From assembly GCA_000004695.1 (NCBI GenBank), contig CM000151.3, positions 1,120,001 through 1,184,000 on the forward strand: a stretch of 64,000 bases of DNA, written 5' to 3'. Position numbers and translations under genes: made by a program. Origin of the DNA: Dictyostelium discoideum (Eukaryota). Shown here piece by piece: positions 59,282 through 61,834 of this stretch (position 1 is its first letter; each line of letters begins with the position of its first letter). The notes below the pieces were generated by a model. The model had not been told where the DNA came from, made no database searches, and worked only from the letters and a program-made list of their open reading frames with translations.

Positions 59282-61834
59282 ATGGATCCAAGTATTTTTA
59301 CATCACTAAAAGGAGTCAATACAAACGAAGATTTATCAGTATTTACAAACACTCTTACAACATCACGTGTTGGTTTAAATTCTAGTCAATCAAGGGTTAT
59401 AAATTCATTGCATCATTTAAAATTAGAACAACAACAATTATTACAACAACAAAAATTAGCAGGATCATCAAATATTATAATACCATCATCATCATCATCA
59501 TTATCACAATCATCACCATCATTTAAAACAATGATATTATCAACATCACCATCTTCATCTTTATCATCATCATTATCATCATCAAAAGAAAGAGCAAATA
59601 TAATAAGGAATATAAATTTTTTAAAAAATAGTGTTGAGAATTTTTTTATTAGTAATAAAACCATATATGAAGAAGGATCATCATCATTTAATATAAATGA
59701 TTTTCCAGAGGAAATTTTAATTCATATTTTAAAATGGGTATCACCATTTGATCTTAGAATTTGTAGTTTAGTTTCAAATTATTGGTCAATAATATCATCA
59801 CAAAACCCAATTTGTAGGTTTTTTTATTTTTTTATAATTTTAATTGTATCATTGAATAACAATAATAATAATAATAGTACTAATATTAATATTAATAATA
59901 ATAATAATAATAATAATAATAATAATAATAATAATAACTATAATAATAAATAAGGGTATGAAAAATGTTATAGTCAATGGCATTGGTGTTGTAATATTAA
60001 TCAAGAGAAATTAAATAGGTTAGGTGATCAGGTTAGTTGGAAAGAATTTTATAAATTTTGGGCAAAAGAATATTTAAAGTATGCAGAATGGTGGCAAGAA
60101 TCATTCTCAAGAGAGGATGCAAATCAAGTTTTATCAACTATGGGTAAAGGTACCTTTTTAATTAGAGCTAGTACCAGTAAAAAGAATTGTTTAGTTATTT
60201 CTTATAATGTACATGCACAAACACCAAATCATATGTTATTAAGTTATCTTGGATTATATACAGGTGTTTCATTATATGATGAGATTGGAAGAGTTTATCC
60301 AACTTTAGCATCGTTAATACGTGGTAAAAAATCTTGGTTAAAAAGACCATTCCAATCATTCTCTTATTTAAATAAATCAAATCTAAAATTAAAATATATA
60401 AATGATAAAATCAATGAAATTGTACAGCAACAACCACAAAATCAACAAAAACAACAACAACATGAACAACAGTTACAACAACATTTACAACAACAACAAC
60501 AAAGATATTCATCAAAAGAAATTGATAGACTTTCATTATTACATATAGCTTGTAAATGGAGTTTTAAATCAATAGTAATTAAATTATTAACTATGGGTGC
60601 AGATGTTAATCATAAATCAACTAAATCAAAGAAATTAAATAGTAATGGTACAAAAAAAGATGGTAAACCACCATTGTTTTTCGCTATTGGATTTGTACAT
60701 GGTCAACCACAATCAAATAACAGATTAGAGATTGTAAAATTACTATTGGAACATCCAAAATTGGATATAAATCAATTAGATTCAAAAGGTCGTTCAATTT
60801 GTCATATAGCATGTAAACAACATCAACAAGATTCTTTGGAAATACTTAAACTATTATTAAAATATGGTGCAAATCCTCATCTACATGCTCCAAATGGTTA
60901 TTATCCATTACATTTAGCTACAAAAGAAAATAATTTAAAAATAGTAAAACTATTATTATCAATTACAACTACAACAATATATAATTATACAAAAACAAAT
61001 GAATTAGAAGGAGATAGTAATAATAATAATAATAATAATAATAATAATAATAATAATAATAATAATAATAATAATAATAATAATAATAATAATAATAATA
61101 ATAATAATAATAATAATGAAGAATTTGAAAAAATAAGGATAATTGAAAATGAAAGAGAAATAATAGGAGAAGAAAAAGAAGAAAATATATCACATATAAA
61201 AATTAATTATAAAGTTGATATAAATTGTAAAATTGAATCAACACCCATATCCAGAATTAATAATGATTATGGTGCAACACCATTACATATAGCGGCATCA
61301 AAGAATTTCATACCAATTATAAAGTTATTATTGGAGCATCCAAATATTGATATTGATTTCAGAGATAATAGTAATAAGACTGCCTTACATCTCTGTGTTT
61401 CAAATCCACAGGATTGGGTTAATATAGCAAGATTTGGTAAACCATTACAACATCATTTTAGTCATCAAACAATTGAATTATTAATTAAAAACAATTCAAA
61501 TCTAAATCTATTGGATGATCAAGCAAAAACACCACTTCATATTGCAATTGAAAAAGGTCATAGAAAGAGTACCTATATCATTGCAACTACACTACGTGAT
61601 TCTTATTCAAAACTATTCATTCAATCCATTTATTCAAAACAATCTTTATATCAAAGTTTAAAAAATGGTTCAGAATCTAAAGATATTCAAAAAATTGTTG
61701 CCGATGTTAATTATTCTATAATGTGTGGTTACAATGAAGATTTCATTGAACCACTTGATAAAACAATCATTGATCATTATAATAATATTAGTGATATTTT
61801 AAAAAAAGAATTTTTTCCATTATTAGAAAATTAA
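59282..61834 (+). CDS. F-box / SH2 / ankyrin-repeat protein (about 803 aa; architecture of Dictyostelium FbxB); exons 59282..59813 and 59955..61834
   Basis: The F-box is 'FPEEILIHILKWVSPFDLRICSLVSNYWSIISSQNPI'. A GTAGGT donor at 59814 splits a TGG codon, and an (AAT)n-containing 141-nt intron ends at AG 59953-59954. The join reads '...NPIW GYEKCYSQWHWCC...', which restores the canonical F-box terminal LW. The SH2 domain is 'WWQESFSREDANQVLSTMGKGTFLIRASTSKKNCLVISY'. At least five ankyrin repeats follow ('LLHIACKWSFKSIVIKLLTMGADVN', 'YPLHLATKENNLKIVKLLLS', 'ATPLHIAASKNFIPIIKLLLEHP', 'TPLHIAIEKGH') plus a poly-N tract. Confidence 0.65.

Follow-up and report, generated by a model that had tools for sequence, protein, structure and literature searches.

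A predicted two-exon gene for the F-box-SH2-ankyrin protein FbxB of Dictyostelium discoideum and the intron within its conserved tryptophan codon

In this work we have investigated a 64,000-nucleotide stretch of the Dictyostelium discoideum genome (assembly GCA_000004695.1, contig CM000151.3, positions 1,120,001 to 1,184,000), which we call the window and in whose numbering positions are given unless a locus is named. Between positions 59282 and 61834 its forward strand holds two open reading frames (ORFs) in the same frame, ORF 1 (59282-59953, 223 codons, with its stop TAA at 59951-59953) and ORF 2 (60140-61834, with its stop TAA at 61832-61834). Are these two genes, or are they parts of a single gene which joins an F-box to an SH2 domain and ankyrin repeats, and what could such a protein do in the cell? 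The first-pass annotation of this DNA had favoured a single gene, in which splicing from a GTAGGT at 59814 to an AG at 59954 removes the stop together with an (AAT)n block and splits the codon of the terminal F-box tryptophan as T|GG. Both proposals were borne out at these very coordinates. Our sequence comparisons indicate that the locus is a two-exon single gene with a single intron, and it can safely be taken on the same grounds as fbxB of D. discoideum, or as an allele from a very close strain. For the gene structure and this identity taken together we would give a probability of roughly 0.9 to 0.95.

The predicted gene extends on the forward strand from the start codon at 59282 to the end of the stop codon at 61834. 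These limits were read directly from the sequence, orthologues have the same MDPS... start and the same end, and an in-frame TAA is found directly 5' of the ATG at 59282. Exon 1 (59282-59813, 532 nucleotides (nt)) encodes a Ser/Gln-rich low-complexity N-terminus (amino acids (aa) 1-137) and the greater part of the F-box; its last base is the T of the Trp178 codon. It is followed by a phase-1 intron (59814-59954, 141 nt, GTAGGT...AATAAG) with the donor GTAGGT at 59814-59819 and the acceptor AG at 59953-59954, and then by exon 2 (59955-61834, 1880 nt including the TAA stop), which starts with the GG completing Trp178. The number of nucleotides in the intron is divisible by three, and the in-frame TAA at 59951-59953 lies inside it, as does an (AAT)n array (59855-59949) with 31.7 copies. 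The guanine-cytosine (GC) content of the intron is 7.8%; the two exons have 25% and 24.5%, and the intergenic DNA on either side 4-8%. Joined at T|GG, the exons give a coding sequence of 2412 nt, and the product of 803 aa proposed earlier was thus reproduced. One detail needs correcting. A conserved 'LW' had been expected at the junction, but the residue before Trp178 is an isoleucine (ATT), so that the window reads 'NPIW', and 'LW' is the version of more distant orthologues.

How firmly can the junction be placed? Enumeration of the region found 44 GT...AG pairs which formally keep the frame open, and comparative evidence was needed for this reason. A search of 5.8 billion proteins gave seven orthologues, namely D. 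discoideum KAM9972955.1, the proteins of D. firmibasis, D. purpureum, Polysphondylium violaceum, Cavenderia fasciculata and Acytostelium subglobosum, and a metagenomic sequence near the P. violaceum protein. In the alignment of these seven, the peptide W-x-x-K-C-x-S-Q-W-x-W at Trp178 is gapless across the junction and invariant, Trp178 included. Orthologue proteins were also threaded back onto their genomic loci to place introns, and in six gene models (five other genomes) a phase-1 intron was found to split this Trp codon: D. discoideum GCA_054859385.1 (81 nt, L001 6533-6613), D. firmibasis (258 nt, L002 3593-3850), D. purpureum (76 nt, L003 3539-3614), P. violaceum (68 nt, L004 3365-3432), the A. 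subglobosum paralogue P0102 (73 nt, L011 2054-2126) and Heterostelium album (81 nt, L010 about 2044-2124). Among the compared gene models the shortest intron has 68 nt and the longest 258 nt. In C. fasciculata and A. subglobosum P0007 this codon is uninterrupted and 'LWEEKC' is encoded contiguously, and the peptide required of splicing can be read there directly. The intron with the GTAGGT donor alone matches the drop in GC content, the invariant peptide of the orthologues, the intron position in the six models and the peptide of the two intron-less orthologues. None of the other frame-preserving pairs restores the conserved peptide.

Cavenderia, Acytostelium and Heterostelium belong to one major dictyostelid branch, and Dictyostelium and P. 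violaceum to the other. Since the Trp-codon intron is common to both branches, the comparison indicates that it was already present in the ancestor of Dictyostelia and was lost independently at least twice. A. subglobosum has two FbxB paralogues: P0007 (L006), without the intron, is syntenic with a GHMP-kinase gene, and P0102 (L011), which keeps the intron, lies elsewhere in the genome and adjoins a Neurobeachin-like gene. That the intron is conserved in the dictyostelids sampled adds a small new point, and a phase-1 intron within a conserved codon is in itself ordinary. The idea that this phase-1 intron marks a domain-shuffling boundary was rejected, as it lies inside the F-box/linker unit and not between modules; the intron is also missing in an environmental homologue (L007) and in two dictyostelid genes.

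Within the species, we compared the window with the assembly GCA_054859385.1. The intron has 11 substitutions in 81 aligned nt and a 60-nt repeat indel, whereas the exons differ at about 1.3% of nucleotides, mostly at silent sites; between these two D. discoideum sequences the intron diverges at roughly ten times the rate of the exons. From the acceptor to the ATG at 60140 there are three substitutions, all of them silent, and the 62 codons at 59955-60139 are identical in protein. Relative to that assembly, the intronic (AAT)n of the window is longer by 60 bases (59880-59939) and an exonic poly-Asn run by 87 bases, equal to 29 Asn (61014-61100), and there are differences of 12 nt and 3 nt in a Gln-rich spacer. 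The length differences are trinucleotide-repeat polymorphisms, present in both intron and coding sequence.

Which gene is this? The nearest protein, the unnamed KAM9972955.1 of D. discoideum, has 99% aa identity to the predicted product outside length differences in poly-Asn and poly-Gln. Thirteen SH2 proteins have been described in Dictyostelium, and FbxB is the member that combines an F-box with ankyrin repeats (PMC2906285, PMC3085826). The published architecture of FbxB is F-box, SH2 and ankyrin repeats (PMC2906285), and we detected no difference from it. An exhaustive HMMER search with an F-box-SH2 profile over 1.84 billion cluster representatives (clusters at 50% identity) found only one cluster with both domains from the genus Dictyostelium, with a D. 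purpureum protein as its representative. The assignment to FbxB, with which the first-pass annotation had found the gene consistent, is based on the unique architecture and the 99% identity to the unnamed protein, and it appears safe because the architecture is unique enough. The gene order accords with this. GCA_054859385.1 is collinear with the window across the 11.4 kilobases (kb) compared (52648-64000), and the same neighbours occur in both D. discoideum assemblies: an aminotransferase gene, a DCN1-like gene and, on the opposite strand, the genes for a GHMP kinase and Rpc34. The name 'FbxB' was not among the source names of the orthologue-search matches.

Turning to the protein, the F-box occupies aa 138-183 (59693-59971, interrupted by the intron). 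At curated gathering thresholds, Pfam F-box (PF00646) scores 31.3 bits over aa 138-178 (cut-off 20.5) and F-box-like (PF12937) 33.3 bits over aa 139-183 (cut-off 24.3). When a family profile extending from the F-box to the SH2 was searched against PDB sequences, it matched the F-box of FBXW7 at 1.9e-7, and FBXW and FBXO chains matched it to positions 80-85, that is, into the linker that follows. This linker (aa 184-222, 59972-60088) is Trp-rich and conserved, containing 14 of the invariant residues listed from the orthologue alignment, and AlphaFold predicts it to be helical with low confidence. The SH2 domain spans aa 223 to about 309 (60089-60349), as defined by Pfam, by alignments to RasGAP and Src and by invariant columns. 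Its match to Pfam SH2 (PF00017) over aa 223-265 (28.6 bits, E = 1.6e-6) passes the gathering score of 21, in line with the SH2 domain that the first-pass annotation had recognized, and the orthologues score 32-36 bits. That annotation had also placed the F-box and the SH2 in ORFs which share a frame and are separated by a stop. The frame and the stop are as described, but the SH2 does not lie wholly in ORF 2, whose ATG at 60140 falls inside the domain starting at 60089.

Is the SH2 domain capable of binding phosphotyrosine? Among PDB sequences the family profile matched the N-terminal SH2 of p85 at 1.5e-9, the RasGAP SH2 at 2.6e-7 and SOCS2 at 6.7e-5, and the RasGAP SH2 was aligned over the whole domain (profile positions 89-171). 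The Acytostelium paralogue P0102 matches positions 1-74 of the 77 in the Pfam profile. Alignment to Src SH2 with hhalign identified Trp223, Arg230 as alphaA2 (codon 60110-60112) and Arg248 as betaB5 of the FLVR motif (codon 60164-60166). Arg230, Arg248 (here in FLIR) and Ser250 (betaB7) align with their Src and p85 equivalents and are invariant in all orthologues; Trp223 and the block N-x-L-V-I-S-Y-N-x-H are likewise invariant across the sampled dictyostelids. Judged from these alignments, the residues of the phosphotyrosine pocket appear intact, with both clamping arginines kept. A full-length AlphaFold model was made on the 779-aa strain variant P0001 as a proxy, with a seven-sequence alignment. 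With the same shallow alignment the predicted order of secondary structure in the SH2, helix, three strands and helix, fits such a domain at low confidence.

Behind the SH2 lies a Gln-rich spacer of strain-variable length (aa 333-365, 60419-60517), recognized by alignment and repeat finding, and then the ankyrin-repeat region (aa 366-722, 60518-61588). Here Pfam Ank_2 scores 129.6 bits (cut-off 27.3) over several stretches and Ank 106.4 bits, and the predicted local distance difference test score (pLDDT) of AlphaFold is 85-93 over most of the region. A Foldseek search of the full model against PDB returned ankyrin and DARPin structures only and was uninformative on the C-terminal region. A run of 33 Asn (aa 533-565, 61019-61117), 29 residues longer than in the other assembly, lies in a loop between ankyrin blocks. 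The ankyrin block also contains a non-canonical insert, QDWVNIARFGKPLQHHFSHQ (aa 660-685, about 61400-61480), in which the residues Q-D-W...R-F-G-K-P...F-x-H-Q are kept in all orthologues, and this insert may be a family-specific binding loop. The protein ends in a conserved helical region (aa 725-803, 61595-61831) with pLDDT 83-93 and no match in Pfam. Its pattern includes D-x-x-K...Y-x-x-x-C-G...T-I-x-x-H-Y-x-x-I, and it can be recognized in the environmental homologue P0103 ('LTEEQLQRTVDNHYEEILK'). We considered whether this C-terminus resembles a SOCS box and rejected the idea, since a Pfam search to E = 1 gave no SOCS_box and, by eye, the sequence does not agree with the BC-box consensus.

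How might these parts work together? The F-box would dock on Skp1 and the cullin Cul1 to give a Skp1-Cul1-F-box (SCF) ubiquitin ligase. Directly after the F-box and linker, in the place of the WD40 domain or leucine-rich repeats (LRR) of classical F-box receptors, the SH2 would select tyrosine-phosphorylated proteins for ubiquitination, and the ankyrin repeats would provide a second binding surface. This phosphotyrosine-degron reader is the mechanism we favour, and from the sequence and by analogy with known receptors we would give it about an even chance. The conserved linker, which joins the F-box straight to the SH2, speaks for it, and SOCS2 offers a solved precedent, in which an SH2 reads the phosphotyrosine degron for a cullin ligase (PMC6557900).

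Several observations weigh against our reading of the locus and its product. The GTAGGT donor is less usual, GTATGT and GTAAGT being predominant in the orthologues, and the exact 803-aa sequence had no match in a collection of 15 billion proteins. The 'LP' motif of the F-box is 'FP' in the window, and its Pro is not kept in more distant orthologues. The Pfam SH2 match covers only positions 1-44 of the 77 in the profile. In the AlphaFold model with seven aligned sequences, the F-box-SH2 segment has a pLDDT below 50, and this segment of 187 aa modelled alone reached a mean of 48.4. Lastly, no function has been assigned to FbxB in the literature (PMC2906285).

Could the SH2 have another role? It is possible, although we would put it below even odds, that substrates are bound by the ankyrin repeats and the C-terminus, and that the SH2 serves only to recruit or switch the ligase, docking for instance on a scaffold or STAT phosphorylated at tyrosine, or on a site in FbxB itself. 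In strength of conservation the ankyrin block and the C-terminal region equal the SH2, with many invariant residues, and both are predicted to fold confidently. Ankyrin repeats are the substrate-binding module in cullin adaptors of the ASB type. Moreover, the C-terminal half of the SH2, which determines specificity, is too divergent for the Pfam alignment. Against such a regulatory role, it is the SH2 and not the ankyrin block which directly follows the F-box and linker, as the substrate domain does in solved receptors such as FBXW7. The Gln-rich spacer which separates the SH2 from the ankyrin repeats is long and variable in length, and the transcript P0244 of Soliformovum irregulare, a protosteloid amoebozoan, keeps the F-box and SH2 as a pair without any ankyrin repeats.

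We consider it very unlikely that the SH2-like segment is a degenerate relic which does not bind phosphotyrosine, leaving the protein simply an F-box receptor of the ankyrin type. The partial profile match with its modest 28.6 bits and the low AlphaFold confidence in this segment would agree with a relic, and a precedent for an SH2 without the canonical arginine is found in STATb of Dictyostelium (PMC2906285). However, the domain is matched almost to its end in P0102 and aligns in full with the RasGAP SH2. The invariance of Trp223, Arg230, Arg248, Ser250 and the N-x-L-V-I-S-Y-N-x-H block also speaks against decay, as the sampled dictyostelid orthologues span the deepest split of the group. The last alternative is a pair of genes, one for an F-box-only protein of 223 aa whose stop is the TAA at 59951, the other for an SH2-ankyrin protein with its start at the ATG at 60140. 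This is hardly credible. Both ORFs are indeed present as listed, and retention of an intron whose length is a multiple of three would just stop translation at that TAA, but the comparative data make two genes untenable. The 62 codons before the ATG differ from the other strain by three nucleotides and still encode the same protein, and they are conserved across Dictyostelia. In two orthologues the whole region is free of introns, and every annotated orthologue is a single protein. A start at 60140, inside the SH2, would remove Trp223 and Arg230. The putative tail of ORF 1 is (AAT)n of 7.8% GC which varies by 60 nt between strains.

Where else does the combination of F-box and SH2 occur? About eight clusters among the 1.84 billion representatives span both domains. 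Those from dictyostelids include H. album and the second Acytostelium paralogue, and three environmental clusters come from JGI and Logan data: two are short fragments, and the third is an F-box-SH2-ankyrin protein of full length. Of the fragments, one (L007 8001-9265) lies on a 148-kb eukaryotic contig of 47% GC, lacks the Trp-codon intron and has an ankyrin-like ORF just downstream. The relatives with F-box, SH2 and in part ankyrin repeats also include an intron-less ORF of 542 aa on a 2-kb contig (L009 369-1997). With the Soliformovum transcript described above, this means that the module, which the first-pass annotation called characteristic of dictyostelids, is by the sequences found typical of the group and not strictly confined to it.

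The F-box-linker-SH2 cassette would on this distribution be older than Dictyostelia, being found in Soliformovum and in environmental contigs, and it would have been kept along with its intron throughout the dictyostelids. Perhaps the cassette was invented in Amoebozoa as a phosphotyrosine-directed receptor for cullin ligases, independently of metazoan SOCS and Cbl. We put this forward tentatively and from sequence alone, and would sooner doubt it than rely on it. If it is correct, FbxB could be the missing 'off switch' which degrades tyrosine-phosphorylated STATs or their partners, the tyrosine kinase-like (TKL) kinases, in Dictyostelium.

The neighbourhood of the gene offers some further observations. 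Upstream in the window are a fragment of an ELO/GNS1-family fatty-acid elongase gene (51697-52056, forward strand), a class I/II aminotransferase gene (52213-53667, reverse), the DCN1-like gene, a cullin-neddylation cofactor with the Pfam domain Cullin_binding (55125-56232, forward), and the GHMP-kinase gene (56190-57672, reverse), which is arranged head-to-head with fbxB. The convergent gene downstream encodes the RNA polymerase III subunit Rpc34 (62004-63004, reverse); it appears as two ORFs, 62004-62702 and 62789-63004, which imply a short intron at about 62703-62788. The divergent pair of GHMP kinase and fbxB is found in D. discoideum, D. firmibasis (L002), D. purpureum (L003), P. violaceum (L004), the P0007 copy of A. 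subglobosum (L006) and H. album (L010), and is not kept in C. fasciculata. In D. discoideum and D. firmibasis the DCN1-like gene is the second gene upstream of fbxB. Could the closeness of a neddylation cofactor to a predicted cullin receptor be meaningful? It is probably coincidental, because it was not found in D. purpureum.

How does FbxB compare with known systems? Like the metazoan SOCS proteins, of which SOCS2 with Cullin5 is an example, it fuses an SH2 to a short cullin-adaptor box, and the SOCS2 SH2 is a weak match to the family profile (6.7e-5). However, the box of FbxB is an F-box, belonging to the Skp1/Cul1 route, whereas the SOCS box belongs to the ElonginBC/Cul5 route and is absent from FbxB according to Pfam. 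The box is N-terminal to the SH2 in FbxB and C-terminal in SOCS proteins, and of the two only FbxB adds ankyrin repeats. With FBXW7, beta-TrCP and Skp2 it shares the order of F-box, conserved helical linker and substrate-binding domain, but their reader is a WD40 or LRR domain for phospho-Ser/Thr, while in FbxB an SH2 is the predicted reader of phospho-Tyr. By analogy FbxB may thus be called SOCS-like or FBXW-like in predicted function only; having neither a SOCS box nor WD40 repeats, it belongs to neither family. The ASB proteins (ankyrin repeats and SOCS box), as well as Cbl and Dictyostelium CblA (SH2-like TKB domain and RING), also combine a recognition module with a ubiquitin-ligase module, although the coupling element and the domain order differ, and beyond the generic ankyrin and SH2 domains no homology to FbxB was detected. 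CblA and FbxB have been grouped as presumed degradation adaptors (PMC3085826).

As a sequence finding the locus is ordinary and already known, correctly spliced: by 2010 at the latest the gene had been published with its name and domain architecture, and the annotation of orthologues uses the same splice site. What the comparison adds, the invariant pocket arginines, the conserved linker, the ancient intron and the relatives outside Dictyostelia, is a basis for the design of Arg248 and F-box mutants. FbxB could be one of very few non-metazoan proteins which link tyrosine phosphorylation to SCF-mediated degradation.

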